A stretch of DNA of 64,000 bases from Bdellovibrionales bacterium (GCA_965262715.1 OZ253553.1:1984001-2048000); one strand, 5' to 3'; positions 1,606-53,882 are shown, counted from the first letter of the stretch. Numbers and translations: made by a program. Notes: generated from the letters alone by a model not told the origin.

Positions 1606-1890
1606 TTTCCCTAACATATATGTAAAAAATGAGAAGTATCTTCTTACTAAAAATAAACAGATTTTTGAGACAATCAGCATTTTACTGACGGTGCTAACCG
1701 TCAAGCTAACTGATAAACAACACCGATTTCCTTAACATTGGGTCAAAAAATGAGGGGAGTCTCCCTACTAAAATGCATCTTTCTTTCTAGGTGATAACCC
1801 TTTTCTGATGGAGCCATCAGGGTTATCACCAGAAAGTAGCCAGAGGCTAGATGCATTTTAGTGAAACAGAGGCCAGTTTATTTTTAGTGA
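1606..1890 (+). repeat. Dispersed hairpin element, two nested units (1606-1726 plus 1868-1890 enclosing 1727-1867)
   Basis: Each unit starts tttcc(c/t)taacat. The outer arm actaaaaataaac of unit 1 pairs with gtttatttttagt located after unit 2; unit 2 has its own arms actaaaatgcatct/agatgcattttagt. Confidence 0.85.
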
Positions 1891-1912
1891 TATAGATTGG
1901 GAGAAAAAAATT

Positions 1913-2206
1913 ATGGGAAAATTCAAAACTTATCACTTAGCAACTCAATTCTATCATAAATCTAACAACTTAAGTTTAAGAGGGCCAATGAAAAACCAAT
2001 TTCAAAGAGCTTCCCTAAGTATCGTATTGAATCTGGCTGAAAGCTCTGCTAAATCTAGTGCTAAAGAACGTAAAAAATTCTATGAAATTAGCTTAGGTTC
2101 TCTAAGAGAGGTACAAACAATACTAACTCTTGTTAACCATCAAAAATTAATAAGAGAAGCTGATAAATTGGGTGCTTTCCTATATAAATTGTGTAAAAAT
2201 ACTTAA
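1913..2206 (+). CDS. Four-helix-bundle protein (23S rRNA IVS / Avd-like family)
   Basis: QFQRASLSIVLNLAE...ERKKFYEISLGSLREVQTIL matches the family pattern Q..RA..SI..NIAEG...F..IA.GSL.E; GGGAG RBS upstream. Confidence 0.85.
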   Translation: MGKFKTYHLATQFYHKSNNLSLRGPMKNQFQRASLSIVLNLAESSAKSSAKERKKFYEISLGSLREVQTILTLVNHQKLIREADKLGAFLYKLCKNT

Positions 2207-2243
2207 AGCTTGGCTTTAAACTCTTTGCGTAAGGTCTCAGTTA

Positions 2244-3719
2244 TTATTTTATTAAACTGTTCCCACAAGCAATATTTTGTTGTGCATGAGATGCTTGTAG
2301 TTCAAGAAGGAACTGATCAACTTCTTTATCTGTAATCTGTACTGCTCCACCATACGCTTCTAGGCCTTGACGTGAGGATGCACTCTGGCTCTTTTTAACA
2401 AGCAGGTCAACAATTAGATCGTTTGCAACACGAATCAGTGGTTCATTATGATAATGTTCATGTACATAATTAATGATATGACCTACCGCTCTTCCTGATA
2501 TATCAAAATTAAATCGACGTCTTCTTAAACTAGGTAAAATTGAGGTTTCTACTACATGCCTTAAATCTTCTTTAGACATTCTATTAGTTATAATTTCTTC
2601 AAAACTAAAAAAATCTTTAGGCATGTCTTGATAACCTTCTGTTGATGAAGCAGCTATTAATTTAATATGGTTTCTTTTTCGTAAATGCGAGCTTAACACT
2701 TGTCTTTGCGAAGCACTCAACTTATGGAATCTATCCATAAAAATGACAATCCTTACTTGAAGTCTCTGTTCTATATCTAAAACAGCCTCTAAATAATTTT
2801 TTAAGTTTTTTGCCTTAGAAAAATCATCTGCAAAACCTCTTTCTATCTTATTAATACGAGATGGATCTGTTTCTATAACATAAGTTTTTCTTCTAGTATC
2901 GCCAGATGCATCTGAAGGATGTTCTGTCATTGCTATTGTATTTATAACAGCCCGATTATCATCTTTTCTTCCAATAAGAATAGGAGCACTATTATTTTGA
3001 GTTGTTAAAGTATCAAGCACTTGACGGACTGCTTCTTGATGTACTTGATTACCACGAGATTCTTCAAAAAATAAGTGATCGCTTAAAAAGTGAACAGATC
3101 CTCTTCGAAACATGCGAATAGGCCTTCTAAAATTACGACTATTTGATTTAGAAAATAGAGAATATAATTGTGTAGTCAGTAAAGTATGATGATCTGTATT
3201 ATCTTGCATATCACTAAGAGTGTAAGAGCTTATATTCTCAGGATTTCTCGAAATGGCTCTATCTATAAGAGTCAAGAAATAAGGAGGCATACTTAATACT
3301 ATAGAACTTGACTGTATCTGCTCTTTCAATTGAATAAGCATAGAAGTATTTTGAGAGCTAAGAAATGGAGAAATTGCTGTCATCATCATTGACATTAATC
3401 TAATATGAGGTGGATTTCGGTCAATCTCTGTCAAAAGAGCTTCTAAAAAAGCTTGTTTAACTTCAAGATAATGAACAAAGTCTGTTAAATAATCCGCAGC
3501 TATTGATCTTTTTTCCTCATCATTTGAAGCTAAGTAATGGAGTTTTTCCTGTAATTGTTGATACTCTTCAGCAGTTGATATTATAGATAAGTCCGTATTT
3601 GACTGTTCTAACTGTGCAAAACTTTTAGTAAAACAAACAACTAAAAGTGAACTGAAGATTAAAAAAGAAAAACTCTTTGAAAATTTTCCAGATTCTCTTA
3701 GTAAGACTTTAATATTCAT
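2244..3719 (-). CDS. Predicted exported protein with a degenerate ClpA/ClpB-like AAA+ region
   Basis: N-terminal hydrophobic signal ending SFA-Q; NSAPILIG (Walker A lost), VIFMDRFHKL (Walker B-like), IKLIAASSTEGY; C-terminal CGNSL. Confidence 0.6.
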   Translation of the reverse strand: MNIKVLLRESGKFSKSFSFLIFSSLLVVCFTKSFAQLEQSNTDLSIISTAEEYQQLQEKLHYLASNDEEKRSIAADYLTDFVHYLEVKQAFLEALLTEIDRNPPHIRLMSMMMTAISPFLSSQNTSMLIQLKEQIQSSSIVLSMPPYFLTLIDRAISRNPENISSYTLSDMQDNTDHHTLLTTQLYSLFSKSNSRNFRRPIRMFRRGSVHFLSDHLFFEESRGNQVHQEAVRQVLDTLTTQNNSAPILIGRKDDNRAVINTIAMTEHPSDASGDTRRKTYVIETDPSRINKIERGFADDFSKAKNLKNYLEAVLDIEQRLQVRIVIFMDRFHKLSASQRQVLSSHLRKRNHIKLIAASSTEGYQDMPKDFFSFEEIITNRMSKEDLRHVVETSILPSLRRRRFNFDISGRAVGHIINYVHEHYHNEPLIRVANDLIVDLLVKKSQSASSRQGLEAYGGAVQITDKEVDQFLLELQASHAQQNIACGNSLIK

Positions 3720-4025
3720 ATAGTATCCTTAACCACATATCCGTCAAAATATCTCATATATATTTTTAAGCAATCACAACAAAATAATAAAATAATCAGT
3801 AAGCTACAATAATTGAATAAAACATTATATACAAGTGAACATATTTATATCCTCTATATTTAAAAATAAAGGATAGTTTTTATACACTTTTGAAAAAAAA
3901 TATATAGAGATTGTATGTAAAAACTTCATATATCATTATTTATTCTCTATTGGTATGAATTTTGCTGCCACTGGATATCAAAATAATCTCCAAAAATCAA
4001 AAATAACCTGATGTGTTATTTTTCC

Positions 4026-4053
4026 TTATCATTTTTAAACAATCTGCCGATAA
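4026..4053 (+). promoter_or_regulatory. Putative sigma-28 (FliA)-type promoter
   Basis: ttatcatttttaaacaatctGCCGATAA; a near-identical motif precedes the paralog (5472-5498). GCCGATAA is the sigma-28 -10 consensus; the -35 match is weak. Confidence 0.5.
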
Positions 4054-7900: not shown

Positions 7901-8010
7901 CCCTAAGTTTAACCAGGATATAATATTTATTCTCCGGAATTCTGGCAATCGGGCATTCCGGCAAACAGTGTCCGGGAACTGATCTCCGGCCTATCAGAGA
8001 ATAGAAATAA

Positions 8011-8156
8011 TTTCCTTAACATGCTATTAAAAAACAAGGATATCCTCCCCACTCAAAATAAACGGATTTTTGAGGTAGTTAGCATTTTCTTGAAGGCGTA
8101 AGCCTTCAGGCTAACTGCCCAAAAATGACCAGAGGTCAGTTTATTTTGAGTGAAAC
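8011..8156 (+). repeat. Dispersed hairpin element, complete single unit (146 bp), abutting the tRNA-Gly 3' end
   Basis: tttccttaacat...actcaaaataaac...ggtagttagc...tgaaggc-gtaa-gccttca..gctaactgcc...ccagagg..gtttattttgagtgaaac. Confidence 0.85.
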
Positions 8157-8159
8157 GAA

Positions 8160-8236
8160 TGGAGCGTAAGGCGGGACTCAAACCCGCGGCCTTCGCCTTG
8201 GCAAGGCGACGCTCTAATCACCTGAGCTACTCACGC
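8160..8236 (-). tRNA. tRNA-Gly (GCC)
   Basis: Reverse complement folds as GCGTGAG-TA-GCTC-AGGTGATTA-GAGC-G-TCGCC-TTGCCAA-GGCGA-AGGCC-GCGGG-TTTGAGT-CCCGC-CTTACGC-T-CCA: full cloverleaf, GCC anticodon, encoded CCA. Confidence 0.95.
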
Positions 8237-9616: not shown

Positions 9617-9904
9617 CGTAAATCCTTTGTAGAACTTATGTCATAGTATAAATAGATCACCTAGATATTGTTACATGAACATCTCAATAATGAAAGGGTG
9701 AATTTCAAGTATTTTGATATAGTCTATACAAATAAGTACCTAATACACACTTACTCAGATCACCTTCTTTTGGAAAACTGGCAGTCCGGAAATCTGGCAG
9801 CAGTATCAGGTATTATCATTCGCGTTCAACCTTTGTATTTGAAAGCACTTTATACTGAATGCTAAATAATATGAGAATTGTAAAAGCTAATGGTAAGAAT
9901 GGAA

Positions 9905-9972
9905 AGAGACTCACCTTGAGAGGCTTGCCTCGAGAGGCTTGCCTCGAGAGGCCAGTTCATTTTGAGTGAAAC
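9905..9972 (+). repeat. Hairpin element right-arm remnant containing the 14-bp tandem unit ggcttgcctcgaga
   Basis: gagaggcttgcctcgagaggcttgcctcgagaggccagttcattttgagtgaaac; same terminus as 8156 and 1867. Confidence 0.75.
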
Positions 9973-9977
9973 AGTTT

Positions 9978-27357: not shown

Positions 27358-27506
27358 TAGAAGCCCTCTTATAAAATAATATTTAAGAAGTCGAATTGCA
27401 AAATGCAAAATATTATTTTATAAGATGGCTTCTAGTCAAAATGGACGGACTCTCTTAAAAGCGTGTATACGCACTTTTAAGAGAGTCCGTCCATTTTGAG
27501 TGAGAC
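27358..27506. repeat. Two adjacent long hairpins; the second is a divergent member of the dispersed hairpin family
   Basis: 27358-27434 has 27-bp arms with 1 mismatch. 27436-27499 has perfect 26-bp arms (tcaaaatggacggactctcttaaaag) and ends in the family terminus attttgagtgagac. Confidence 0.85.
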
Positions 27507-29964: not shown

Positions 29965-30349
29965 GTTCCACTAAAAATAAACCAACCTCTGGTTGTTTTT
30001 GGGCAATGAGCATGACGGCTAACGCCCTCCTAAAATGCTCATTGCCTCAAAAATCCGTTTATTTTTAGTAATGAGAATTTTTTCTTTTTTTATACGATGT
30101 TAAGGAAAATGTTGCTGTTTACAAAGCAGCCTGACGATTCACATCGTCAGCAAATAGCTAACTGCCTAAAAAGCTTGAGGTGTTTTAGTAGGAAGAATCT
30201 CTTTATTCTCTTATATCATGTTAAGGAAAATATTGTTGTTTACAAATCAGCCTGAAGGTTTACATCTTCAAGAAAATGCTGACTGTCTCAAATATCCATT
30301 TATTTTTAGTAATGAGGGTCTCTTCTTTTTTTACAAAATGTTAAGGAAA
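29965..30349 (-). repeat. Tandem array of three hairpin-element units (29965-30108, 30109-30229, 30230-30349)
   Basis: atgttaaggaaa recurs with 121- and 120-bp spacing; each unit has a different but base-paired internal stem. Confidence 0.88.
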
Positions 30350-30614
30350 TCTTTCCTAATAGTTTTTTATTTTCTAAAAAATGTGTATTCCTTTCATTTT
30401 GTTAAAATGCATCTAAGCAAAGCAGTCATATTTTTACCTTAAAAACAGTTTAAAATAGGTTTTAAAGCAATCTTAAAAAATAATTCAGCCTAATCTTATT
30501 AAAAACTGCTTGTCATAAACTTAAGTTTAATGATAGAAAGTATCAATTGTTTTTGTGTATATCAAATTATAAAATATAAAATTTGGAATAGTTGTTGTAA
30601 GAGCGTACTAAATC

Positions 30615-31633
30615 ATGAGTCGAAATCAGGTATTAATTTATATTTTGTCTTTTTTGACAATTTTTATCATTACAACATTTAGTAGCTTAGGCTTATCTCG
30701 CCGCGCTAAACTTCCTAAATCATTAGAAGAAGAAAGGGTTGCCAGATTACTTTATGAACACATACTTCAAGATAACTTAGATGGATTTACGGAGATTTTA
30801 AATAATTACCCACAATATATCAATATTGCATATTATCACCCAAATTATGATGACTATCTTACACCTTTACAATCTGCTGCTCTATTAGGGAGAGATGATT
30901 TTATAGATGAGTTATTATTAAAAAGAAAAATCGATCTATTTTCCAGAACAACAAATAAAGGTAATTCTATTCTTCACCTCTCCAGCATACCTCATATTAC
31001 AAAAAGACTTATAGACCTTACTTTCAAGCTTGAAGCCCGCAATGCTCAACTTATGACTCCTCTACTTGCACAAGCCTACAAAACAATCCTTAACAGAGGA
31101 GTTATACATACCTTACTAGAAGCTGGTGCTAACCCGGATGCAAGGACTAATATTTCAGATTAACAGCCTTACATATTTTATTTAAGCCACATCATGCACA
31201 TAGCCATCGAGAAGACCTATTAGCTATTTTAGGAGATCTTTTAGAATATGGTGCAAGCGTAGATGCTACAACCAAACAAGGTGCAACTGCTTTACACTTT
31301 GCTGCAGGAAACAATGATGCTGAAGCTATAAGGATTCTTGTCAATAAAGCAAATCAAATAGGAATTAAAGATTCTTTTATTAATACACAAAACTCATCCG
31401 GCAATACTCCACTTTCTATAGCTTATAAACATCAATCTAAAGAAGCCATCACCCAACTGCTAAAACTAGGAGCAAATCCTTTCTTAAAAAATAATGATGG
31501 TGTATCAGTTAATGGAGATGCCCGCCTTCGAAGCAGTGAAGGAGAAGTTTTTGATTTTAGTAAATTTGTCTTAGATGAAATAAGACGATATATTAAACCA
31601 TCAGTCATTTGTGCCCAACCACTGACGACCTAA
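30615..31633 (+). pseudogene. Ankyrin array copy 1 (frameshift near 31158)
   Basis: One base is missing relative to paralogs (tcagattaaca vs tcaggattaaca/tcagaattaaca). The downstream frame continues LTALHILFK...VICAQPLTT* to 31633. Confidence 0.85.
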
Positions 31634-32112
31634 CGCGAATACTTAAACAAAAGTAAAGTTTTGTATTTTGCAAAATAAAAGTCCTCATCATTGTTTTTTT
31701 ATTCTGAAAAATCCTTTCAGAAAAAAGTGTAATCTATGTATACAGAATGGACCCTTTTACTTTCAGGCAAGCGGCTAAACAGTGTCCGGAAACTGATCCA
31801 AAGAACCGATTCCGGACTACCTCAATTACCGGAATGCTAGATAAAATAAATCCTCATTTTAGATTTCATTTCTAAAAAATGTGTATTCCTTTCATTTTGT
31901 TAAAATGCATCTAAGCAAAGCAGTCATATTTTTACCTTAAAAACAGTTTAAAATAGGTTTTAAAGCAATCTTAAAAAATAATTCAGCCTAATCTTATTAA
32001 AAACTGCTTGTCATAAACTTAAGTTTAATGATAGAAAGTATCAATTGTTTTTGTGTATATCAAATTATAAAATATAAAATTTGGAATAGTTGTTGTAAGA
32101 GTGTACTAAATC

Positions 32113-33147
32113 ATGAATCGAAATCAGGTATCAATTTATATTTTATCTTTTTTGACAATTTTTATTACTACAACATTTAGCACTTATAGTTTAGGCTTAT
32201 ATCGTGCTAAACTTCCTGAGTCGCCAAAAGAAAAAAGACAAGCCACATTACTTCATATACAAATACTTCAAAATAACTTGGATAAATTTATGAGGATTTT
32301 AGATAAATACCCACAATATATTAATGCTGTATACTATTATCCAAAATATGAGGATTATATAACACTTTTACAATCTGCTGCTATATTCGGGAGAGATGAG
32401 TTTATAGATGAGTTATTGAAAAGAAAAATCGATCTATTTCCCACAACAACGAATAAAGGTAATTCTATTCTTCACCTCTCCAGCATACCTCGTATTACAG
32501 AAAGATTCATAGACCTTGCTTTCAGGCTTGAAGCTCGTAATGATCAATTAATGACTCCTCTACTTGCACAGGCTTACAAAGACACCCTTAACAAAGAAGT
32601 TATACATACCTTATTAGAAGCTGGTGCTGACCCAGATGCGAAAACAGATATTGCAGGATTGACAGCCTTACATATTTTATTTAAGCCACATCATGCAAGC
32701 AGCCATCGGGAAGATCTATTAGCTATTTTAGAAGATCTTTTAGATCATGGCGCAACGGTATATGCTAAAACCAAACAAGGCGCAACTGCTTTACACTTTG
32801 CCGCAAAGAACAATGATGTTGAAGCTATAAGGATTCTTGTCGATAGAGCCAATCAAAGAAGAATTAAACACCTCTTCATTAATATGAGGAACTCAGATGG
32901 CGATACTCCACTTTCTATAGCTTATAAACATCAATCTAAAGAAGCCACCACCGAACTGCTAAAACTAGGAGCAAATCCTTTATTAAAAAATCATAGTGGT
33001 GTATCAGTCAATGGAGATGCCTACCTCCTCTTTCGAAGCAATCAAAGAAATAGCTTTGATTTTAGTAAATTTGTCTTAGATGAAATAGCAAAATATTTTA
33101 CACCCTCAGATCGTTGTGCCCAGCCACTAATGTCTGTTGGTTTATAA
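32113..33147 (+). CDS. Exported ankyrin-repeat protein, array copy 2
   Basis: Signal peptide; GNSILHL, LLEAGADPD, GATALHFAA, GDTPLSIA, LLKLGANP. Confidence 0.92.
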   Translation: MNRNQVSIYILSFLTIFITTTFSTYSLGLYRAKLPESPKEKRQATLLHIQILQNNLDKFMRILDKYPQYINAVYYYPKYEDYITLLQSAAIFGRDEFIDELLKRKIDLFPTTTNKGNSILHLSSIPRITERFIDLAFRLEARNDQLMTPLLAQAYKDTLNKEVIHTLLEAGADPDAKTDIAGLTALHILFKPHHASSHREDLLAILEDLLDHGATVYAKTKQGATALHFAAKNNDVEAIRILVDRANQRRIKHLFINMRNSDGDTPLSIAYKHQSKEATTELLKLGANPLLKNHSGVSVNGDAYLLFRSNQRNSFDFSKFVLDEIAKYFTPSDRCAQPLMSVGL

Positions 33148-33165
33148 TTAGAAAGTTGGATTCGA

Positions 33166-33220
33166 TTTTTAAAAAGTATCTATAAATCCAAAAGTGTTGC
33201 ACTTGCTATTTGAGCCTATA
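33166..33220 (+). mobile_element. Solo IS30-like right end after ankyrin copy 2
   Basis: tttttaaaaagtatctataaatccaaaagtgttgcacttgctatttgag versus the IS30 end cttttaaaaatatctataaccgcaaaagtgttgcacttgcgatttgaag (25152-25200). Confidence 0.8.
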
Positions 33221-33392
33221 TCTTAAAAACAATTTAAAATAGGTTTTAAAGCATTTTTAAAGGACAACTCAATCTAATTTTATTAAAAATTGCTTGTCAT
33301 AAACTCAGTTTAATGATAAATGATATCAATTATTCTTGTGATATCACATCATAAAACTTATAGAGGGATTACTATTTGAGAGTGTAAGAGTT

Positions 33393-34439
33393 ATGAATCG
33401 AAATCAGGTACTAACTTATATTTTATCTTTTTTGATAATGTTTATTACTACAACATTTAGCATTTATAGCTTATCTCAATTTCCTCAGCTTCCTAGATCA
33501 ATGGAAGAAAGAAAGCTCGCCGAATTACTCCATAAACGAATATCTCAAAATAATCTTGATGAATTTGTAAGGATTTTAGATGCGTACCCAAAATATATCA
33601 ATATTATAATTATACAATTTCATCCAGAATACACACGCACTCTTACTCCATTACAACATTCCACTATGTTAGCGAGAAATGAATTTATAGATGAGTTGTT
33701 GAAAAGAGAAGCTGATCCAACTTTAACAACTTTATCCGAAGATAATTCTCTTCTTCATCTTGCTTCTTCACCTCGCACAGCAAAAAAACTCATAGATTTA
33801 GGCCTTGACCTTGAGGCTACTAATTTTCAAGGTATGACACCACTGCTTGTAAAAGTTTTCAAAAGAACATTAGATAGAGAAGTTATACACACTCTACTAG
33901 AAGCTGGTGCTAATCCAAATGTAAGAACCGATATTTCAAGGATGACACCTTTACATATCTTATTTAAGCCACATCATATATTTCATACAGCCAGCCACGA
34001 AGAAGATTTATTAGTTATTTTAAAAGACCTCTTAGATCATGGCGCAAGAGTGGATGCTACAACTAAACAAAAAGAAACTCCTCTACATTTTGCAGCAAAA
34101 GCTAATAATGTTGAAGCTATAAGGATTCTTGTCGATAGAGCCAATCAAAGAAGAATTAAACACCTCTTCATTAATATGAGGAACTCAGATGGCGATACTC
34201 CACTTTCTATAGCTTATAAACATAAATCTAGAGAAGCTATTACTGAGCTTTTAAAACTAGGATCAAATCCTTTTGTAAAAAATAACTTCCTAGTATCAGT
34301 TAATGGAGATGCCCACACTCAAGAATTTAGAGGTAGTGGAGAAACTTTAGATTTTAGTAAGTTTGTTTTAGATGAAATAACAAAATATTTTACACCCTCA
34401 GATCGTTGTGGCCGATCACTAACGTCTGTTAGGTCTTAA
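33393..34439 (+). CDS. Exported ankyrin-repeat protein, array copy 3 (most divergent N-terminal half)
   Basis: Signal peptide and ankyrin motifs as in the paralogs. Confidence 0.92.
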   Translation: MNRNQVLTYILSFLIMFITTTFSIYSLSQFPQLPRSMEERKLAELLHKRISQNNLDEFVRILDAYPKYINIIIIQFHPEYTRTLTPLQHSTMLARNEFIDELLKREADPTLTTLSEDNSLLHLASSPRTAKKLIDLGLDLEATNFQGMTPLLVKVFKRTLDREVIHTLLEAGANPNVRTDISRMTPLHILFKPHHIFHTASHEEDLLVILKDLLDHGARVDATTKQKETPLHFAAKANNVEAIRILVDRANQRRIKHLFINMRNSDGDTPLSIAYKHKSREAITELLKLGSNPFVKNNFLVSVNGDAHTQEFRGSGETLDFSKFVLDEITKYFTPSDRCGRSLTSVRS

Positions 34440-34456
34440 TTAGAAAGACGGATTCG

Positions 34457-34512
34457 ACTTCTAAAAAAGCATCTATAAATCTAAACTGTTGCACTTGCTA
34501 TTTGAACTTATA
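34457..34512 (+). mobile_element. Solo IS30-like right end after ankyrin copy 3
   Basis: atctataaatctaaactgttgcacttgctatttgaac. Confidence 0.75.
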
Positions 34513-34864
34513 ATATTTACGAAAGAGTTTTTCAAAAATTCTCAAAATTCTTTATTTTGTAAATGTATCTTGAAAAAGATCCATTTTGGAGATGTAGATT
34601 ATAGTTTACCAGTTTCTTATTTAATAGACCGCCAGATAAAATTTTTATTTTTAAGATAGTCTCCAGCCTCAAAATAACTATATTTTTATCTTAAAAACGA
34701 TTTAAACTTGGTCTTAAAGCATATTTTAAGGAATTATCCATGATGATATTTTATTAAAAAATTTGTTTGTCATAAACTCAGTTTAATGATAAATGATATC
34801 AATTATTTTCTGTATATATCAAATCATAAAGTTTGGAATAGTTATTGTAAGAGTGTACTAAATC

Positions 34865-35902
34865 ATGAATCGAAATCAGGTATCAATTTATATTTTATCT
34901 TTTTTAACAATATTTATTACTACAACATTCAGCACTTATAGTTTAGGCTTATATCGTGCTAAACTTCCTGAGTCGCCAAAAGAAAGAAACCAAGCCACAT
35001 TACTTCATAAACAAATACTTCAAAATAACCTCGATGCATTTATAGAGTTTGTAGAGATTTTAGATAATTATCCACAATATATTAATACTGCATACTATTA
35101 CCAAAAATATGATGATTATCTTACACCTTTACAATCTGCTGCTCTATTAGGGAGAGATGATTTTATAGATGAGTTATTGAGAAGAAAAGTCAATCTATTT
35201 CCCACAACAACGAATAAGGGTAATTCTATTCTTCACCTTTCCAACAAACCTCATATTACAAAAAGATTTATAGACCTTGCTTTCAATCTTGAAGCCCACA
35301 ATGATCAATTAATGACTCCTCTACTTGCACAGGCTTACAAAAGAACCCTTAACAAAGAAGTTATACATACCTTATTAGAAGCTGGTGCTGACCCAGATGC
35401 GAGAACCGATACTTCAGAATTGACAGCCTTACATATGTTATTTAAACTACATCATGCAAGCAGCCATCGGGAAGATCTATTAGCTATTTTAAAAGATCTT
35501 TTAGATCATGGTGCAAAAGCATATGCTACAACCAATAAAGGCGCAACTGCTTTACACTTTGCCGCAGGAAACAATGATGTTGAAGCTATAAGAATTCTTG
35601 TCGATAGAGCAAATCAAAGAAGAATTAAACACCTCTTCATTAATATGAGGAACTCAGATGGCGACACTCCACTTTCTATAGCTTATAAACATCAATCTAA
35701 AGAAGCCACCACCGAACTGCTAAAACTAGGAGCAAATCCTTTATTAAAAAATAATAGTGGTGTATCAGTCAATGGAGATGCCCACCTTCGAAGCAGTGAA
35801 AGAAAGATTTTTGATTTTAGTAAATTTGTCTTAGATGAAATAGCAAAATATTTTACACCCTCAGATCGTTGTGCCAAGCCACTAATGTCTGTTGGTTTAT
35901 AA
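34865..35902 (+). CDS. Exported ankyrin-repeat protein, array copy 4
   Basis: Signal peptide and ankyrin motifs as in the paralogs. Confidence 0.92.
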   Translation: MNRNQVSIYILSFLTIFITTTFSTYSLGLYRAKLPESPKERNQATLLHKQILQNNLDAFIEFVEILDNYPQYINTAYYYQKYDDYLTPLQSAALLGRDDFIDELLRRKVNLFPTTTNKGNSILHLSNKPHITKRFIDLAFNLEAHNDQLMTPLLAQAYKRTLNKEVIHTLLEAGADPDARTDTSELTALHMLFKLHHASSHREDLLAILKDLLDHGAKAYATTNKGATALHFAAGNNDVEAIRILVDRANQRRIKHLFINMRNSDGDTPLSIAYKHQSKEATTELLKLGANPLLKNNSGVSVNGDAHLRSSERKIFDFSKFVLDEIAKYFTPSDRCAKPLMSVGL

Positions 35903-35903
35903 T

Positions 35904-37251
35904 GGCCTTGTTGCACAAAGATTTAAATAGTTTTTATTTTATTTATTTTTTAAGTAAGATTGTCATTTAATATTTTTTTATCAAGCTGAAAGAGAAGAAG
36001 GCACAATCATCTGATTAAGGATTTTACATTTAATAAACACTTCATTTGCTTGACGATGAAATTCTCTAGAAGATAATTTATCACCTAATAAAGTTTTAAA
36101 TCTATACATAGCTGTTTCTGATATAGACCTCCTGTGATATTTATGTTTTTTTTTCCACTTCTTTCTACCCATCTTCTTGATTTCTCTAATATAAGTATCT
36201 CTAAGAAGCGGCGATCCTCGACAATTTCCATGCCTCTTAATCACAGCATTCTTTCTAGGTGGAGCAACCAATTTTATACTTCTATCACTTGTAAACTGAT
36301 AACAATTCTTACAGTCATAAGCCCCATCAACTGAAACTTGGCCTATCTCATCTTCATATCCTGTCAATAACTCTTCAAAAACCTCATTATCCTTTACAGA
36401 ATTATCACTCAAAACAGATGCCTTAATCTGGGAATTTGACTCATCTACCGCTAAATGTAGCTTCTTCCAGGTCCTTCTCTTAGAATACCCATGCTGACGG
36501 ACTTTCCACTCTCCCTCCCCATAAACTTTAAGACCTGTGGAATCAATGACAATATGAGGACTCTTGTGAGAAGATAGCTTTCTTTCTAGTTTTACTGATA
36601 ACTTCTGTAATCTTCTGCAAAGAGTTGTATAATTAGGTATTTCTATATCAAGACACATAAGTTCAACTAGGGATTTAGCAAAACCTTCTGTAGATCGCAA
36701 TTTTAAACCAAATATGAATCTTAATATATTAAGAGTTTCAATAGCTTTATCAGAGTAAACTTGTTGACCCCCTTGCTTTGAAGAACATTTTGCATACCAA
36801 GATTTGACGATATCTGCTGAAAACCAAAAAGTGATTTGACCTCTATTGACTAGAGACTTATTATAAAGACTCCAGTTTATTTTTTTATTTTTACCCATCT
36901 CTAGCTCCTTCTGATTTAGTGATTGTGAAAGTTGGGGATGGGTAAATTTTATAATCACTAAAAACAAAAAATCAAAGTAATAGATATCAAACTCAGAAAA
37001 AATAGAGCTTAGGCAAAAAACTTCATATATGGTGCATAATAAACATCTGTAGGAGAATTATGGCAGGCTTCTGAAATAGGACTAGGCCAGTGCCTTAGGA
37101 GAAAAATATCTATAAAGCATTCGATACTATAATAAAATCTTAAAATAATAGCAATAAAAGGTACAGAGGCCCTCTAAGGCCTATGGAAGATGCCTGACTT
37201 AATTCTCTAACTTGTATACACATATTCCATAAATCTTTGTGCAACAAGACC
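35904..37251 (-). mobile_element. IS5-family (IS903-like) insertion sequence
   Basis: 21-bp terminal inverted repeats ggccttgttgcacaaagattt and aaatctttgtgcaacaagacc (1 mismatch); no target duplication visible. Confidence 0.92.
35981..36898 (-). CDS. IS5-family transposase
   Basis: NWSLYNKSLVNRG, IDSTGLKVYGEGEWKVRQHG, WKKLHLAVD, VDGAYD, YHRRSISETAMYRFK; start MGKNKK after an AAGGAG RBS. Confidence 0.96.
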   Translation of the reverse strand: MGKNKKINWSLYNKSLVNRGQITFWFSADIVKSWYAKCSSKQGGQQVYSDKAIETLNILRFIFGLKLRSTEGFAKSLVELMCLDIEIPNYTTLCRRLQKLSVKLERKLSSHKSPHIVIDSTGLKVYGEGEWKVRQHGYSKRRTWKKLHLAVDESNSQIKASVLSDNSVKDNEVFEELLTGYEDEIGQVSVDGAYDCKNCYQFTSDRSIKLVAPPRKNAVIKRHGNCRGSPLLRDTYIREIKKMGRKKWKKKHKYHRRSISETAMYRFKTLLGDKLSSREFHRQANEVFIKCKILNQMIVPSSLSA

Positions 37252-37525
37252 GATGTAGATTATAGTTTACCAGTTTCTTATTTAATAGACCGCCAGATAA
37301 AATTTTTATTTTTAAGATAGTCTCCAGCCTCAAAATAACTATATTTTTATCTTAAAAACGATTTAAACTTGGTCTTAAAGCATATTTTAAGGAATTATCC
37401 ATGATGATATTTTATTAAAAAATTTGTTTGTCATAAACTCAGTTTAATGATAAATGATATCAATTATTTTCTGTATATATCAAATCATAAAGTTTGGAAT
37501 AGTTATTGTAAGAGTGTACTAAATC

Positions 37526-38553
37526 ATGAATCGAAATCAGGTATCAATTTATATTTTATCTTTTTTAACAATATTTATTACTACAACATTCAGCACTTAT
37601 AGTTTAGGCTTATATCGTGCTAAACTTCCTGAGTCGCCAAAAGAAAAAAGGCTTGCCAAATTACTTTATGAACAAATACTTCAAGATAACTTAGATGTAT
37701 TTGTGAAGATTTTAGATAACTACCCACAATATATCAATATTGCATATTATCATCCAAATTATGATGACCATCTTACACCTTTACAATCTGCTGCTCTATT
37801 AGGCAAAGATAATTTTATAGATGAGTTATTGAGAAGAAAAGTCGATCTATTTCCCACAACAACGAATAAGGGTAATTCTATTCTTCACCTCTCCAACATA
37901 CCTCGTATTACAAAAAGATTTATAGACCTTACTTTCAAGCTTGAAGCTCGTAATGATCAATCTATGACTCCTCTACTTGCACAGACTCACAAAACAATCC
38001 CTAACAAAGAAGTTATACATACCTTACTAGAAGCTGGTGCTAACCCAGATGCGAAAACCAGTTTTTCAGAATTAACAGCCTTACATATTTTATTTAAGCT
38101 ACGTTATGCAAGTAGCCATCGGGAATACCTATTAGCTATTTTAGAAGATCTTCTAGATCATGGTGCAACAGTAGATGCTACAACCAAACGAGGTGCAACT
38201 GCTTTACACTTCGCCGCAGGAAACAATGATGTTAGAGCTATAAGAATTCTTGTCAATAGAGCAGATCAAATAGGAATTAAAGATTCTTTTATCAATACAC
38301 AAAACTTATTTGGCGATACTCCACTTTCTAAGGCTTATAACTATCAATCTAGAGAAGCTATTACTGAGCTTTTAAAACTAGGAGCAAATCCTTCTTAAAA
38401 AATAATCTAGGTGTCTCAGTCAATGGAGATGCCCACCTTCGAAGCAGTGAAGGAGAAGTTTTTGAGTTTAGTAAGTTTGTCTCAGATGAAATAATACGAC
38501 ATTTTAAACCATCAGATCGTTGTGGCCAATCACTAACGTCTGTTAGGTCTTAA
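37526..38553 (+). pseudogene. Ankyrin array copy 5 (frameshift near 38391 removes the C-terminal ~50 aa)
   Basis: aatccttcttaaaa versus aatcctttcttaaaa in copy 1; the shifted frame continues ...VSVNGDAHLRSS...DRCGQSLTSVRS*. Confidence 0.85.
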
Positions 38554-38570
38554 TTAGAAAGACGGATTCG

Positions 38571-38626
38571 ACTTCTAAAAAAGCATCTATAAATCTAAAC
38601 TGTTGCACTTGCTATTTGAACCTATA
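38571..38626 (+). mobile_element. Solo IS30-like right end after ankyrin copy 5
   Basis: Near-identical to 34457-34512. Confidence 0.75.
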
Positions 38627-38807
38627 TCTTAAAAACAATTTAAAATAGGTTTTAAAGCATTTTAAGGGCTAAGGAATTATTCAGAGTGATATTTTATTAA
38701 AAAAATCCTTGTCATAAATTGATTTTAATTAATATTAATGGTGTTTTGTAGGGTGATAATAGGCCAAATTCACTTACCGATAGGCGATTACTTAAGAGTG
38801 CTGAATT

Positions 38808-39842
38808 ATGATTCGAAATCAGGTATCAATTTATATTTTGTCTTTTTTGACAATTTTTATCATTACAACATTTAGTAGCTTAGTCTTATCTCGCCGCGCT
38901 AAACCTCCTAAGTCGCCAGAAGAAGAAAGGCTTGCAGGCTTACTTCAGGAACACATACTTCAAGATAACTTAGATGGATTTGTGGATGTTTTAGATAATT
39001 ATCCAGAATATATTAATATTGCATCCTATTATCTACAATATGATGATTATCTTACACCTTTACAATCTGCTGCTCTATTAGAAAGAGATGAGTTTATAGA
39101 TGAGTTATTATTAAAAAGAAAAATCGATTTATTTTCCAAAACAACGAACAAAGGTAATACTATTCTTCACCTTTCCAGTATACCTCGTATTACAAAAAGA
39201 TTTATAGACATGGCTTTCAAACTTGAAGTTCGCAATGCTCAATTTATGACTCCTCTACTTGCACAAGCCGACACAGCAATCCTTAACAAAGAAGTTATAC
39301 ATGTCTTATTAGAAGCTGGTGCTGATCCAAATGCGAGAACCAATATCTCAGGATTAACACCTTTACATATTTTATTTAAGCCATCAGACCATGCAAGCAG
39401 TGATCAACAATCTTTATTAGCTATTTTAGAAGATCTTTTACATCATGGCGCAACAGTAAATGCTACAACCAATCGAAATGAAACTCCTCTACATTTTGCA
39501 GCAAGAGCTAATAATGGTGTGGCTATAAGAATTCTTGTCAATAGAGCAAGTCAACTGGAAATTAAAAATTTTATTAATATGAGAGACTCAGATGGTAATA
39601 CTCCACTTTCTATAGCTTATAAAAATCAATCTAGAGAGGCTGTCACTGAACTTCTAAAACTAGGCGCAAATCCTTTTTTGAAAAACAACCTCCGCATATC
39701 AGTTAATGGAGATGCCCACATTCAAAGTGGTAGAAGTAGTGGAGAAACTTTACATTTTAGTAAATTTGTCTTAGGTGAAATAGCAAAATATCTTAAGCCA
39801 TCAGCTCGTTGCGCTCAACCACTAATACCTGTTAGGCCTTAA
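38808..39842 (+). CDS. Exported ankyrin-repeat protein, array copy 6
   Basis: Signal peptide and ankyrin motifs as in the paralogs. Confidence 0.92.
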   Translation: MIRNQVSIYILSFLTIFIITTFSSLVLSRRAKPPKSPEEERLAGLLQEHILQDNLDGFVDVLDNYPEYINIASYYLQYDDYLTPLQSAALLERDEFIDELLLKRKIDLFSKTTNKGNTILHLSSIPRITKRFIDMAFKLEVRNAQFMTPLLAQADTAILNKEVIHVLLEAGADPNARTNISGLTPLHILFKPSDHASSDQQSLLAILEDLLHHGATVNATTNRNETPLHFAARANNGVAIRILVNRASQLEIKNFINMRDSDGNTPLSIAYKNQSREAVTELLKLGANPFLKNNLRISVNGDAHIQSGRSSGETLHFSKFVLGEIAKYLKPSARCAQPLIPVRP

Positions 39843-39859
39843 TTAGAAAGTTGGATTCG

Positions 39860-39913
39860 ATTTTTAAAAAGCATCTATAAATCTAAACTGTTGCACTTGC
39901 TATTTGAACTTAC
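39860..39913 (+). mobile_element. Solo IS30-like right end after ankyrin copy 6, marking the end of the array
   Basis: atctataaatctaaactgttgcacttgctatttgaacttac. Confidence 0.75.
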
Positions 39914-39947
39914 GGATTAAAAAAAAGTATGAATGATATCTTTATCA

Positions 39948-40832
39948 TTATTGTTTGAGTTTTATGAGGTCTTCATTTAATTTTTGAAGCTGTGTATCTT
40001 CCGGTGGAAGAAGTGGACTTCTCATTTGGAGTGTTGAAATCATTTTTGATAAATAAAGAGCAGCTTTCATAGGTATAGGATTAGTATCAAAGTTTAATAT
40101 ATCAATATACCTTTTAATATCTTGAAACTTAGATCGGCCTTCATCAACATCTCCTTTCATATAAGCATTATAAACACTCACAGTCTGAGCAGGAAGTAGA
40201 TTAGAAATAACAGAAATAATTCCATCTCCCTTTATCTCCATAAAAGCATCAAATGTATTGTCATCTCCACTAAGCATTCTAAAGTCTTCATCTGATGAAA
40301 AGACTCTCATTAATTCTTTATCAAATTGAATATCTCCTGAGGCTTCTTTAACACCTATTATGTTTTTGCATTTTGAAAGACTCACAATAGTTTCTAAACT
40401 TAATGAAGTGATGGTTCTAGATGGAACATTGTAGAGTAAAATAGGAATATCTACAGATTTATCGATCCTTTGAAAGTGATGTAAAAGCCCTCTTTGTGGA
40501 GGTTTATTATAATAGGGTACAACACATAAAAGGGCATCCGCACCCCACTTCATAGCTTCTTGCGCTTTCTCAATAGTATCAACAGTGCTGTTAGAACCGA
40601 CACCTACAACCAACGGAACTTGACCAGAAACTTCTGATTGAACCACATCAAAAATTTGCTTTTTTTCTTTCCGAGTTAAAGTAGGGCTTTCTGCAGTTGT
40701 TCCTAAAACAATCAGGCCATGTATCCCTTCAGTTAATTGATGTTTTACAAGTTTTTGAAGAGATAATATATCTATTTGATTATCTTTAAATGGTGTGGCT
40801 AAAGCTGTTAAAACGCCTCTGAATGTGTGCAT
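39948..40832 (-). CDS. dapA: 4-hydroxy-tetrahydrodipicolinate synthase
   Basis: TALATPF, GTTAESPTL, PYYNKP, LYNVPSRT, GVKEASG, LSGDD, NPIPMK. Confidence 0.96.
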   Translation of the reverse strand: MHTFRGVLTALATPFKDNQIDILSLQKLVKHQLTEGIHGLIVLGTTAESPTLTRKEKKQIFDVVQSEVSGQVPLVVGVGSNSTVDTIEKAQEAMKWGADALLCVVPYYNKPPQRGLLHHFQRIDKSVDIPILLYNVPSRTITSLSLETIVSLSKCKNIIGVKEASGDIQFDKELMRVFSSDEDFRMLSGDDNTFDAFMEIKGDGIISVISNLLPAQTVSVYNAYMKGDVDEGRSKFQDIKRYIDILNFDTNPIPMKAALYLSKMISTLQMRSPLLPPEDTQLQKLNEDLIKLKQ

Positions 40833-40899: not shown

Positions 40900-41057
40900 T
40901 TTTCTTAACATGATGTTAAGTAACGAGAACATCCTGCTACTAAAAATGAACATTTGAGATAGTCAGCTACTTATTGAAGGCGTGAGCCCTCAGGCTTATT
41001 ACCCGAAAATAGCCAGAGGCTCGCCTCGAGAGGCTTGCCTTGAGAGGCTTGCTTCGA
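40900..41057 (+). repeat. Hairpin element unit with an expanded 14-bp tandem repeat and truncated right arm
   Basis: tttcttaacatgatgttaag...actaaaaatgaac...tgaaggc-gtga-gccctca...ccagaggctcgcctcgagaggcttgccttgagaggcttgcttcga. Confidence 0.82.
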
Positions 41058-42190: not shown

Positions 42191-42261
42191 CGAATTAGCT
42201 TGGATTTGATTCATCAAGGATTGGATGTACAGCTTGTTTTGATGTTTATGGCAAAGCCAAG

Positions 42262-42320
42262 TAGCTCTCGAAAGGCTTATCTCGAGAGGTTTGCCTCGAG
42301 AAGTTGGTCTATCTTGAGGG
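42262..42320 (+). repeat. Degenerate hairpin-element right-arm remnant (three 14-bp units)
   Basis: ctcgaaaggcttatctcgagaggtttgcctcgagaagttggtctatcttgagg. Confidence 0.55.
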
Positions 42321-51133: not shown

Positions 51134-51703
51134 ATGTATGAAACCAATGACTTTAGAAAAGGCTTGAAAGTACTTATAGATAATGAGCCTTATATAGTTA
51201 TAGATTTTCAACACAATAAACAAGGTAGAGGCGGCCAGTTTACCCGAACCAAATTAAAAAACATGATCACAAACATGAACTTAGAAAGGACATTTAAATC
51301 AGGTGAAAAGTTTAGTGTCCCGGATATTGTTTCAAAGGATGTTACTTTTTTATATAAAGATGATAGTGGTTTTCACTTTATGGATAAGAGCAATTATGAA
51401 CAGCACTCTCTAACAGAGGATGAAGTTTCAGATGTTAAGCTTTATTTGGTAGATTCGTTAGATGTCACTATGTTATTTTTTAACGATACACCTATCGGTA
51501 TAGATGTGCCTAATAGTGTTAACCTTACAGTTGCTAAGACTGAACCTGGGATTAAGGGCAATACTGTATCAGGAGGCAGCAAGCCTGCAGTGTTAGAGAC
51601 GGGACTGACTGTTAATGTTCCACTTCACATTAATGTATCTGATGTTTTAAGAGTCAATACCAAAACAGGTGAATACTTGGAAAGAGTCAAGACAAATAAG
51701 TAA
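51134..51703 (+). CDS. efp: Elongation factor P
   Basis: DFRKGLK, RTKLKN, TEPGIKGNT, KPAVLETGL.V.VPL, VNTKTGEY.ERV. Confidence 0.97.
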   Translation: MYETNDFRKGLKVLIDNEPYIVIDFQHNKQGRGGQFTRTKLKNMITNMNLERTFKSGEKFSVPDIVSKDVTFLYKDDSGFHFMDKSNYEQHSLTEDEVSDVKLYLVDSLDVTMLFFNDTPIGIDVPNSVNLTVAKTEPGIKGNTVSGGSKPAVLETGLTVNVPLHINVSDVLRVNTKTGEYLERVKTNK

Positions 51704-51714
51704 TAAGGAAAAAG

Positions 51715-53115
51715 ATGGCTATGTTGGATAATATCATTTTGATGACAGACTCTTACAAAGCCACGCATTGGAAAATGTATCCACCAAAAACATCTAAAGT
51801 GTATTCTTATCTTGAAGCAAGAAAAGGCGGTGAGTGTCCAGAAGTAGTTTTTTTTGGCTTGCAATATTTACTCCAACGTTATCTTGAAGGCAAGCGGGTC
51901 ACTCGTAAAAACATTGATGAGGCTAATACTTTCTTTTTATCTCACTTTGGTCAAAATCTTTTCAATAAGCACGGGTGGGAGTATATTGTTGATGTCCACA
52001 ATGGCAGGCTACCTGTCGAAATCCGCGCTGTACGCGAAGGAACTGTCATCCCTGAGGGGAATGTAGTGCTCACTATTGAAAATACGGATCCCAAATGCGC
52101 ATGGCTTACAAATCACCTAGAAACTCTTTTGGTTCAACTTTGGTATCCCTGCACAGTAGCAACAACTTCTAGACAGCAAAAAAAGATGATTGTTGCAGCA
52201 CTTGAAAAGTCTGGAACACCGAATCTAGCAGATCTTAAACTTCATGATTTTGGTTACCGAGGCTCCTCTTCAACAGAATCAGCTGCTATTGGTGGAGCTG
52301 CTCATTTAATTCACTTTCGAGGAACAGACACCTTAGCTGCTTGTGAATTTGCCATGAAATACTACAACGCTAGTATGCCTGGTATAAGTATTCCTGCTGC
52401 TGAACACAGCACTATCACTGCATGGGGGAAAAATGCAGAATACGATGCCTTTCGACATATACTTGAGGCATACCCCACTGGTTTAATATCCATTGTATCT
52501 GATTCTTGGGATATCCAGAAGGCTTGTAAATTATGGGGAACTGAGTTGAAGGATCATGTGATCCAACGAAATGGGATATTAGTGATTCGTCCAGACTCTG
52601 GTCAGCCAGAAAAGATTGTTCCTGATTGCCTTGATATACTTGGAGAAAAGTTTGGTTATAAAACTAACGATAAAGGCTATAAAGTACTTCCAGATTTTTT
52701 AAGATTGATTCAAGGTGATGGTATCTCCCGCCATACTCTAGGCAGAATTATCGATGCCATTATCCAGAGAGGTTGGTCACTTGACAACGTAGCATTTGGT
52801 TCTGGAGGAGGGCTGCTTCAACTTGTCAATCGTGATACACAGAGGTTTGCAATGAAGTGTTCTTATGTCGTTGTCGATGGTAAACAGCGAGATGTATGTA
52901 AAACACCAACTTCTGATTTAACAAAAAGCAGTAAAAAAGGGCGATTAAAGCTTATCAAAAAAGAAAACTCTAGTGATGGTGATGCCTTAATGAGTTATAA
53001 GACAGTTTCACAGCGCGCTCATGGTCAAGATGAATTGAAAGTTGTCTTTCGAGATGGTGAAATCAAATCTTACATTCATTTTGATCAAGTTCGAGAAACC
53101 GCTAAGGTCGATTAG
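51715..53115 (+). CDS. nadV: Nicotinamide phosphoribosyltransferase (NAMPT)
   Basis: TDSYKATH, LHDFGYRG, IPAAEHSTITAWG, SIVSDSWD, VIRPDSG, IQGDG, FGSGGGLLQ..NRDT. Confidence 0.93.
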   Translation: MAMLDNIILMTDSYKATHWKMYPPKTSKVYSYLEARKGGECPEVVFFGLQYLLQRYLEGKRVTRKNIDEANTFFLSHFGQNLFNKHGWEYIVDVHNGRLPVEIRAVREGTVIPEGNVVLTIENTDPKCAWLTNHLETLLVQLWYPCTVATTSRQQKKMIVAALEKSGTPNLADLKLHDFGYRGSSSTESAAIGGAAHLIHFRGTDTLAACEFAMKYYNASMPGISIPAAEHSTITAWGKNAEYDAFRHILEAYPTGLISIVSDSWDIQKACKLWGTELKDHVIQRNGILVIRPDSGQPEKIVPDCLDILGEKFGYKTNDKGYKVLPDFLRLIQGDGISRHTLGRIIDAIIQRGWSLDNVAFGSGGGLLQLVNRDTQRFAMKCSYVVVDGKQRDVCKTPTSDLTKSSKKGRLKLIKKENSSDGDALMSYKTVSQRAHGQDELKVVFRDGEIKSYIHFDQVRETAKVD

Positions 53116-53500
53116 AATAACCTTATACCAATAAAATCACCTCAATAAAAAAGTGGTTTATTTTTATGTACCTCAGATACATAGGCAATATCTTTTCAAA
53201 GTCATAGATTCCTCCTTTATTAAAACCTGTCAGGGCTCGGGACAAAATTTTTTAGATGCAAAAATTCAGACCAGATTCAGTTGCCAGCCCCAGTTTACCA
53301 GCTTTGCCTGAAACCTGATGTCAGATACCAAAAAAAGCTCAATTTGACAAGAAATAACTTATAATTTCAGTGAGTTATATTGAAACAGCAACAACCTCTG
53401 GTTATGAACCAAAATAAAATATGTATAATATATATCTTGACTGATCTATGGCATGGAAAATACAACAAAACATCGATAGATTTGTTTATAGGGGTGTTAT

Positions 53501-53602
53501 ATGAAAAAACATTTATTCGTCTTTCTTTATATTTTCATTGTCTTTTCTTCTTTTGCAAACAGCCAACAAGAAGCGCCACTCTCAATTGAACAGATTTTTT
53601 GA
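53501..53602 (+). pseudogene. Stub of an exported-protein gene (signal peptide only)
   Basis: GGGGTG RBS followed by MKKHLFVFLYIFIVFSSFANSQQEAPLSIEQIF*; a hairpin element follows within 30 bp. Confidence 0.45.
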
Positions 53603-53631
53603 TGCAATAAACTGATGATCTAAGGATAAAA

Positions 53632-53882
53632 TTTCCTAACATTGTATCAAAAAACGAGGGGTATCTGCTCTACTCAAAATAAACGGATTTTTGAGACAGT
53701 CAGCCTTTTATTAGGGGATACATCCCGTAGCGTGAGCCTTCATACTGACTGTCTAAAAACTGCCAGAGACTCGCTTCGAGAGACCAGATACATTTTAGTG
53801 CAGTTTCCTTAACATCATGTTAAAAAACGAAAAGTATCTCCCTCCTAAAAATGGTCAGAGACCAGTTTATTTTGAGTGAGAC
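53632..53882 (+). repeat. Hairpin element, two units (53632-53802 and 53804-53882)
   Basis: tttcctaacat / tttccttaacatcatgttaa starts; gacagtcag/ctgactgtc stem; the first unit's left arm actcaaaataaac pairs with the terminal gtttattttgagt. Confidence 0.85.

Follow-up and report, generated by a model that had tools for sequence, protein, structure and literature searches.

We analysed a 64,000-nucleotide (nt) stretch of a Bdellovibrionales bacterium genome (GCA_965262715.1 OZ253553.1:1984001-2048000; the window) that carries several units of a dispersed non-coding repeat. Each unit is about 160 nt long and consists of a purine-rich leader, a near-invariant head, a rod that folds as a three-way junction, and a GAAAC tail. 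The repeat is a non-autonomous structured element that is real and mobile, and it is undescribed in the literature searched, which gave no account of it and did not cover most subscription journals. The mechanism of its spread is what we infer from the features below.

Units in the window

Searched with a profile and a covariance model, the window contains nine units at five loci, three of them complete. The first-pass annotation, made from the sequence alone, counted about 12 units at eight loci. Its motifs do sit where it placed them, but two of its units (9905-9972 and 42262-42320) are chimeras with a unit tail and a third (27430-27506) belongs to a sister family. It also began the units at the head, whereas a unit extends about 14 nt further left as a variable purine-rich leader.

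The first locus is a nested pair on the plus strand. A purine-rich leader (1592-1605), of a type that recurs with related bodies at unrelated loci, precedes the 5′ part of an outer unit (1606-1712, model positions 1-107). This is interrupted by a complete inner unit (1727-1867, 141.7 bits) inserted between the CC and AGAGG of the outer one. The 15-nt leader of the inner unit (1712-1726) stands in place of 14 nt of the outer unit, and the residual 3′ end of the latter follows at 1868-1893, with a stem arm that fits the outer unit (0.93) better than the inner (0.69). The target context is an inverted repeat (1549-1929, arms 1549-1578 and 1900-1929) before a plus-strand gene for a four-helix-bundle protein (PF05635, 1913-2206); the nested pair occupies its loop, which is 14 nt long in empty paralogues.

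The second locus, also on the plus strand, holds a purine-rich leader (7997-8010) and a complete unit (8011-8156, 161.3 bits). The head covers 8011-8030 and the outer stem starts at about 8050, followed by middle stems with a bulged A, a T-rich internal loop, an apical stem with a GTAA loop, the AGA-triloop stem and the tail GTGAAAC. A tRNA-Gly gene lies antisense on the minus strand (8160-8236), its CCA end 3 nt from the tail of the unit. The third locus is on the minus strand and combines a complete unit (29965-30108, 148.5 bits) with the 5′ parts of two interrupted units, each followed by a leader (30127-30229, model positions 1-103, and 30245-30349, model positions 1-106).

The two remaining loci are on the plus strand. 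At 40900-41057 is a tailless unit with 14-nt repeats within its AGA loop. At 53632-53800 lies a unit that carries one more apical hairpin as well as a 14-nt repeat, and whose clipped tail is fused to the head of the next unit (53804-53882), which has an internal deletion (model positions 1-52 and 108-146) and a tail adjoining TGGTGGAC, the complement of a tRNA-like 3′ end.

The chimeras, both on the plus strand, are matched by neither the profile nor the covariance model. One (9812-9972) joins a 5′ part from another family to 14-nt AGAGGCTYGCCTCG repeats and a unit tail; the other (42238-42320) joins a hairpin arm of a repeat family that we call F to degenerate 14-nt repeats and a unit-type tail. 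The sister family at 27430-27506 (plus strand, 31.8 bits; 13 copies with orphan tails) is a simple hairpin that has the outer stem and tail in common with the unit.

Copy number and range

G000 denotes the source genome (2.94 Mb) and G001, G002, G003 and G004 the relatives compared with it. The head 12-mer TTTCCTTAACAT was counted 240 times in G000, against about 1.1 expected under an order-4 Markov model. A genome profile built on 51 seed copies gives 457 matches, both ends being present in 286. They fall into 227 loci, together 2.0% of the genome; the reversed genome gives none. Single matches make up 129 of the 227 loci, and the clusters are mostly same-strand. Although the genome is 78% coding, 439 of the 457 matches lie mostly outside open reading frames (ORFs) and 18 mostly inside an ORF of at least 100 amino acids. 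Contigs of the probable source sample and of two further studies accumulate on the units: in the best runs, summed depth is about 6-11 on unique DNA and reaches 88-457 in the two main bins that hold units. The units are therefore not an assembly artefact.

Few other genomes carry the repeat. When 41 genomes were searched at the DNA level, strong matches came from G000, G001 and G004 only, apart from three single short weak ones. With the covariance model, matches occurred in 3 of the 121 genomes taken from the order and in 1 of 141 from the phylum, that one being G000 itself. Heads counted across genomes number 180 in G000, 566 in G001, 6 in G004 and none in G002 or G003. The G004 matches are confined to three contigs (C1, C4 and C11), which share synteny with G000 (main blocks at roughly 82-92%). 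G004 has rplN twice, a C11 copy 98% identical to that of G000 and a C14 copy 79% identical to it. The three contigs look like misbinned DNA of a close relative of G000, and we read them as such, which confines the family to one genus among the genomes searched. In GTDB genomes a strict pattern had no matches and a looser scan found 40 stretches, all within one record; loci from this record are pooled with those of G001 below (the pooled loci) and are not counted as independent. Pattern scans of viral contigs and of metagenomes found nothing. The Rfam search recommended with the first-pass annotation recovers, in the window at gathering score, only a tRNA, and eight units have no Rfam match up to E=1.

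A covarying three-way junction

Strong covariation bears out the stems first proposed from the window (outer, middle and apical), and the T-rich bulge is likewise real. In a 59-copy alignment, 28 of 37 pairs show two-sided changes and 95.7% of cells pair; none of 500 shuffles scores as high, and slid controls are 33-49% paired. In a second set (182 copies after a 93% redundancy cut) the 16 best-scoring column pairs are all helical. The copies are related and recombine, so that cell counts overstate the independent pairing events.

The fold is a three-way junction in which a third arm of 5 bp joins the other stems. The outer stem pairs model positions 41-53 with 129-141. The middle stem carries a bulged A63, kept in 179 of 182 copies, and a 7-by-1 T-rich internal loop separates it from the apical stem. 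The apical loop is GNNA, with a pyrimidine at the third position, where GNRA has a purine, in 54 of 182 copies. CCAGAGG, previously taken to be unpaired, forms the 5-bp stem around an AGA triloop and contains the best covarying pair. A T-G pair at the stem base is kept in 175 of 182 copies. Other parts of the original model fare less well. The supposedly fixed gag..ctc pairing does not form a conserved helix (58% Watson-Crick, 22% A-C). The head palindrome does not covary, and over the first 40 nt conservation is of sequence and not of pairing. The head has the appearance of an operator for a dimeric protein, with the motif TTAACA-N3-TGTWAA.

Helices are 90-97% Watson-Crick, with 140 G-T and 74 A-C among 7048 stem cells (about 2% G-U). 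GNNA and ANA loops are stable DNA motifs. The low G-T share and the non-GNRA loops lean toward a fold read as top-strand single-stranded DNA. One unit folds with a z-score of -8.1 when treated as DNA and -7.8 when treated as RNA, and it is the DNA fold that yields the clean junction. An unrecognised non-coding RNA family, one of the identities first offered for the element, is thus the weaker option, given 2% G-U and the 54 of 182 loops with a pyrimidine at the GNRA purine position.

Junctions and empty sites

Comparison of filled and empty sites supports the initial view of a folded, mobile, non-autonomous unit, as do nesting and the lack of an Rfam match. Against the relative that is roughly 90% identical, two sites are filled in contig C1 of G004 and empty in G000, and one site has an extra unit in G000. 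Within the data set, 351 queries yielded an empty paralogue for 79 (72 distinct). Among the 29 pairs with non-unit targets, target sequence was lost in 25 (1-36 nt, median 19), and the other 4 have duplications of 1, 21, 25 and 29 nt. The 25 pairs with target loss have 5-34 extra nt at the head junction (median 19) and a median of 1 at the tail junction.

The two ends thus differ. Similar bodies at unrelated loci have common flank to about position -13 at the head and for 2 nt at the tail, so the extra bases on the head side are inherited. One copy took 11 nt of a tRNA-Pro 3′ end to a second locus, and in the pooled loci a leader consensus is visible. Identical bodies occur with different leaders, and one site occurs with different bodies; the bodies are thus mosaic. 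The tail junction is near-exact, falling between GAAAC and AR: the next base is A, then comes a purine, and the third base is variable. AG or AA follows the tail in 224 of 287 cases in G000 and 160 of 185 in the pooled loci; AG, the counterpart of the C|T at which REP (repetitive extragenic palindromic) elements are cleaved, accounts for 157 of 287 and 59 of 185, respectively, and AA dominates in the pooled loci. Two derivations of the leader were rejected. As an inverted copy of the right flank it shows no register above z 0.5 against shuffles, and as an inverted copy of the head it gives a weak signal (9.6 against 8.9) that is partly owed to the adjacent F family.

The absence of terminal inverted repeats (TIRs) and target-site duplications (TSDs) noted from the window holds in substance. 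The two ends are alike (TTTCCYTAA and TTAGKGAAA) and 72% pairable, which would suit a MITE (miniature inverted-repeat transposable element) moved through imperfect terminal repeats by a resident DDE transposase, and the genome is rich in copies of insertion sequences (ISs) that we take, partly from Pfam matches, to be of IS30, IS1634, IS256, IS3 and IS5 type. The ends do not covary, however, and the tail pairs with positions 41-53 instead. Target sequence is lost (25 of 29) where a short TSD would be expected, and by eye none of the 10 IS ends compared (11 families tried) resembles the ends of the unit. We regard this origin as largely refuted and very improbable.

Nesting and arrays

The AGA loop is the favourite insertion site of the unit in its own copies. 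Where a tail runs into unit sequence, that sequence resumes at the AGA loop in 21 of 41 cases in G000 and 29 of 87 in the pooled loci, almost always in the same orientation (39 of 41 and 86 of 87); the method cannot register joins to the final few bases, among them 13 tails that meet a reversed head. Of 17 nested cases with a leftover arm, 12 fit the outer unit and 3 the inner, the remaining 2 being ties; 19 others have no residual. The loop also accumulates the 14-nt repeat, of which the genome has 176.

In arrays, the first spacer copies the upstream flank in 12 of 26. The array between rpsQ and rplN is an example in which the spacer repeats the upstream flank, and it is kept in two genomes. 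Unrelated arrays in G000 (C1:86592, 1808386, 2128862, 2133219, 2313983 and 2868256, among others) have a period of 228-236 nt, which may be the preferred size of an amplified intermediate.

No convincing autonomous copy bounded by head and tail was found. Among 108 units of G000 with unrelated flanks, no pair exceeds 96% identity (median 85%), and spread in this genome is therefore older or error-prone. Six distinct loci of G001 carry an identical body, which could reflect recent insertion or gene conversion.

Targets and neighbouring repeats

Units favour hairpin-rich, dispensable DNA. In G000, a unit lies no more than 200 nt from 9 of 14 four-helix-bundle genes, against a background of 11% (p 3e-6), and among loci sampled elsewhere units occur at 9 of 9 in G001 and 0 of 11 in G004. 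These genes are frequent neighbours and targets. We rejected the protein, whose sole PDB match is 2gsc, as the mobiliser, given the 11 G004 loci without units and the genes that units disrupt. Genes of the Rpn family are also near units (9 of 43 in G000, p 0.04); matches number 43 in G000 and 57 in G001, many of them fragmented. Units disrupt four-helix-bundle and Rpn genes, a CRISPR array and one another.

Several observations concern these targets. PF05635 has 19 matches in G000, 14 in G001 and 19 in G004, and the gene belongs to a multi-copy module (1480-2260 in the window, with 18 more loci in G000). The module has heptamer-like tandem repeats and a hairpin, one arm of which could pair with the ribosome site and start of the gene itself; short terminal inverted repeats apparently edge some copies. 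In three related copies (G000 C1:476743, 482121 and 490460), a unit takes the place of a spacer between two CRISPR repeats; one of these copies is at the end of an array beside cas2 and cas1.

Such damage bears on whether the cell keeps the units for its own benefit, as RNA-stabilising hairpins or nucleoid-protein sites whose spread is secondary. The intergenic placement of 439 of 457 matches, the rpsQ-rplN array persistent in two genomes and the operator-like head would agree with this. The broken four-helix-bundle and Rpn genes, CRISPR array and units speak against it, as do the polymorphic sites and a family confined to one genus among the genomes searched and without an Rfam match, and we consider domestication improbable.

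A second alternative needs no dedicated enzyme. Host repair or template switching, perhaps with help from Rpn, would catch hairpin fragments at breaks, and recombination would spread and homogenise them, with replicative correction of stem arms producing much of the covariation. Rpn proteins are linked to RecA-independent transfer (PMC5350276, in the part available), and the 43 and 57 Rpn matches, sloppy junctions, mosaic bodies (identical ones with different leaders, one site with different bodies) and preference for other hairpins and dispensable repeats all suit this account. Yet arm correction would erase bulges, and there is almost no variation in the bulged A, the AGA loop, the T-G pair at the stem base or the unpaired head. 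Specific recognition is what the fixed tail end and the single hot spot argue for. Nor are Rpn genes a sufficient cause, since G003 has 20 matches and no units. We find an enzyme-free origin doubtful.

Tails also lie next to tRNA genes. In 5 of 34 tRNA genes an antisense tail falls -1 to +3 nt from the CCA, against 0.04 expected. Tails crowd stop codons too (9 of 66 at 1-6 nt), and the two cases in G001 have spacers of 3 and 8 nt, so the signal is suggestive only.

Two further repeat families adjoin the units. The F family is about 200 nt long with a long hairpin and about 57 copies in G000 (for example C1:58025-58222; 42238-42270 in the window), and its hypervariable G/A-rich end is usually fused to a unit head. 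Where F copies reach this purine-rich end, a unit head is present in 52 of 65 by a loose test that includes palindromic double matches, and some leaders are therefore F remnants. The F hairpin core also occurs within a repeat of about 295 nt that terminates at an IS30-type end. The third family is about 165 nt long and ends at CAGCTC followed by AR (9812-9950 in the window; also in four-helix-bundle genes of G000). It inserts between C and A inside four-helix-bundle genes and unit heads, seemingly with no target loss, and may be a cleaner handle on a shared enzyme.

Other features of the window include a tandem cluster of about six ankyrin-repeat genes (30366-39951) with near-identical upstream regions, broken by an IS5-type transposase, and a defence-like cluster (54245-63818) of a UvrD helicase, a SIR2-domain protein, a type III restriction subunit and a methylase. 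Elsewhere, both G000 (C1:2843535 and 2850419) and G004 (C11) have further, partial copies of rplN at 4-7 kb downstream of the intact one, and four tandem tRNA-Trp-like pseudo-copies stand ahead of a tRNA-Trp gene (G000 C1:2198524-2198955).

Candidate enzymes

The first-pass annotation suggested looking for a transposase, a REP-associated tyrosine transposase (RAYT) or a reverse transcriptase (RT) flanked by units; no RAYT with flanking copies was found. The single Y1 gene (PF01797) of G000 stands alone. It is of IS200 type, has ends of its own and is not flanked by units, the nearest unit fragment being about 1.8 kb away. A scan for HUH motifs returned 42 ORFs, among which only the IS200-type TnpA is recognisable by eye. 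Ku is absent from G000 and G001. Five cas1 loci of G000 each lie beside a short cas2-like gene, by eye, and show no casposon sign; a dif/Xer site, a hammerhead core and parS were dropped for want of a full match to the motifs.

Three RT matches (PF00078) occur in G000, two presumably of group II intron type and one of retron type, and none in G001 or G004. The retron-type RT is a protein of 590 amino acids with a long N-terminal extension, encoded beside tRNA-Asp (L003 1282-3054; G000 C1:2650522-2652294). We rejected a link to the unit nearby, which belongs to the adjacent tRNA-Asp end.

These RTs bring in a route resembling that of a short interspersed element (SINE). Read-through transcripts would be trimmed to a stable RNA of leader and rod. 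An RT acting in trans would start copying this RNA at its 3′ end, at a site that is either a DNA break or the 3′ end of an RNA, and the product would be joined as cDNA, loosely, to upstream target. The tail runs 5-7 nt beyond the stem, about the point at which 3′ exonucleases come to a halt. Upstream flank travels along, including 11 nt of the tRNA-Pro 3′ end, and antisense tails lie near CCA as noted (5 of 34 against 0.04). The exact 3′ junction, 5′ deletions and extra bases resemble linear group II intron insertion as the available part of PMC3280974 describes it. Against it, G001 has no PF00078 match with 566 heads, compared with 180 in G000; G-U pairs fill 2% of stem cells and many loops are not GNRA; the bias in orientation relative to transcription is slight (120:88); and Ku is lacking. 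Stop-codon hugging (9 of 66) makes the tRNA signal partly a general crowding, and the G001 spacers are 3 and 8 nt. Overall we see this route as possible, if on the unlikely side.

Proposed mechanism

The reading that we prefer, at a probability of about 0.45, is a non-autonomous element that spreads as a folded single DNA strand served by an enzyme in trans. A protein would read the top-strand fold and bind the double-stranded head motif, and one catalysed strand transfer would produce the tail junction. Copying would stop loosely beyond the head, where host repair would join the end with loss of target DNA; the target loss observed means that host repair is needed there. Re-initiation at the same tail could generate tandem arrays, and recombination between copies could shuffle whole stems. 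By analogy with REP elements, bacterial interspersed mosaic elements (BIMEs) and the one-ended transposition of IS91, the chemistry would be HUH-like.

A number of points weigh against this. HUH insertion does not typically cost the target 1-36 nt, and no tetranucleotide target is seen. The leader boundary is not fixed by sequence, since only 7 of 33 and 3 of 53 shared blocks place it at AG. The filled and empty pairs are not all independent, several stemming from one event. No excised or circular form was seen in contigs of four runs, although contigs are uninformative on excision; among the 15 of 62 contig joints displayed, none skips a whole unit. By replichore the strands are used 129:117, without lagging-strand bias, and by local skew 139-142 units against 104-107 point toward the leading-like strand (57%; genes 54%), with the rearranged genome skew limiting the power of the test. 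Folding energy does not tell the two strands apart (24 of 40), top and bottom folding about as well as each other. Nor do the known enzyme families help: Y1 is limited to the one gene in G000, with none in G001 or G004; Y2 (PF04986) is absent from all five family genomes; PF02371 of IS110 is absent from G000 and PF01548 from G000 and G001; and, among relaxase and Rep families, the profile search covered PF03432, which neither G000 nor G001 has.

G000 and G001 are each a single contig with 90-93% marker completeness, so absence of an enzyme is not proven. G001, with about three times as many heads as G000, has none of the candidate families tested, RT included. The mobiliser may be lost, on unassembled DNA, or of an unrecognised family. 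Since G001 carries about 570 heads, identical copies at several loci and no tested family, the enzyme may be there, unannotated. It is rather unlikely, in our view, that the unit is either the substrate of an unrecognised enzyme that reads a DNA three-way junction or a bacterial SINE for which RNA 3′ ends, for instance tRNA CCA, serve as primers. In the former case the partner would be none of the known HUH, RT, IS110 or DDE enzymes, and insertions would be one-ended and of replacement type.

The spread of short bacterial repeats is settled for few families. Here, hundreds of natural variants, a resolved fold, a defined self-target and filled and empty pairs make the recognition rules directly testable. 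A mobiliser that is neither a known transposase nor an RT would be a novel means of writing short structured DNA into genomes; if the family is an orphaned REP-like one, it is an unusually dense case of a familiar kind of repeat.

Comparison with known systems

The unit lacks the defining traits of REP elements and REPINs (their inverted doublets), IS91, IS110, MITEs and Rfam families, and we therefore speak of analogy and not membership. MITEs carry TIRs and TSDs; the unit has neither and is asymmetric. Rickettsia palindromic elements and the ERIC (enterobacterial repetitive intergenic consensus) and Correia MITEs are, like the unit, small structured non-coding repeats of narrow range. In IS200/IS605 elements, guide bases at the foot are complementary to the cleavage tetranucleotide. 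The unit differs from these and the related PATE (palindrome-associated transposable elements) in that positions 37-40 vary (CCCT, CCTT, TCCT) while the tail is fixed, without a guide match, and in showing no lagging-strand bias. It differs from IS110/IS1111 in that no DEDD recombinase was found (PF02371 in G000; PF01548 in G000 and G001). Helitrons are taken together with IS91 in the comparison that follows.

The accessible text of PMC13181058 describes IS91 as capturing flank without a TSD by one-ended transposition. The unit is like it in its unequal ends, lack of TSD, single exact end, flank captured past the loose end and palindromes near both ends. It is unlike it in that none of the five family genomes has a Y2 transposase, no CTTG/GTTC-type target is seen, no autonomous copy was found, and the target is deleted.

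Linear group II introns, in the part of PMC3280974 available, insert with an exact 3′ junction, 5′ target deletion and extra bases. The unit differs from group II introns and SINEs in having no intron domains or Rfam match, in being poor in G-U, and in the lack of RT in the copy-richest genome. Cyanobacterial SDR5, to judge from the portion of PMC4390886 at hand, is likewise a small structured non-coding repeat of narrow range that inserts at a fixed spot and has no known enzyme, but its insertion into HIP1 is precise.

The proposal that the unit is a REP-, REPIN- or PATE-like HUH substrate stands as an analogy and not as an identification: the sole Y1 is IS200-type, G001 has none, and GTAG is misplaced. 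REP elements and REPINs are defined by RAYT, GTAG and doublets, as far as the available parts of PMC3116915 and PMC3333891 describe them, with REP hairpins of 30-40 nt in inverted doublets where the unit is one 146-nt three-way junction. The foot of the unit is CTAC, TTAC or CTCC (84, 53 and 19 of 182), and GTAG falls 3′ of the foot on the other strand. The unit also differs in having no RAYT flanked by its copies, a polar head and tail design, and target loss. The likenesses, drawn from the same parts of those papers, include hundreds of intergenic copies, a species-level range, and an imperfect hairpin with conserved irregularities. BIMEs combine variable flank capture with tandem amplification (PMC3333891, same portion), and the unit, like REP, BIME and REPIN copies, inserts in or beside its own copies, forms tandem arrays with locus-specific spacers, and often has AG, which is CT on the other strand, at its tail junction.

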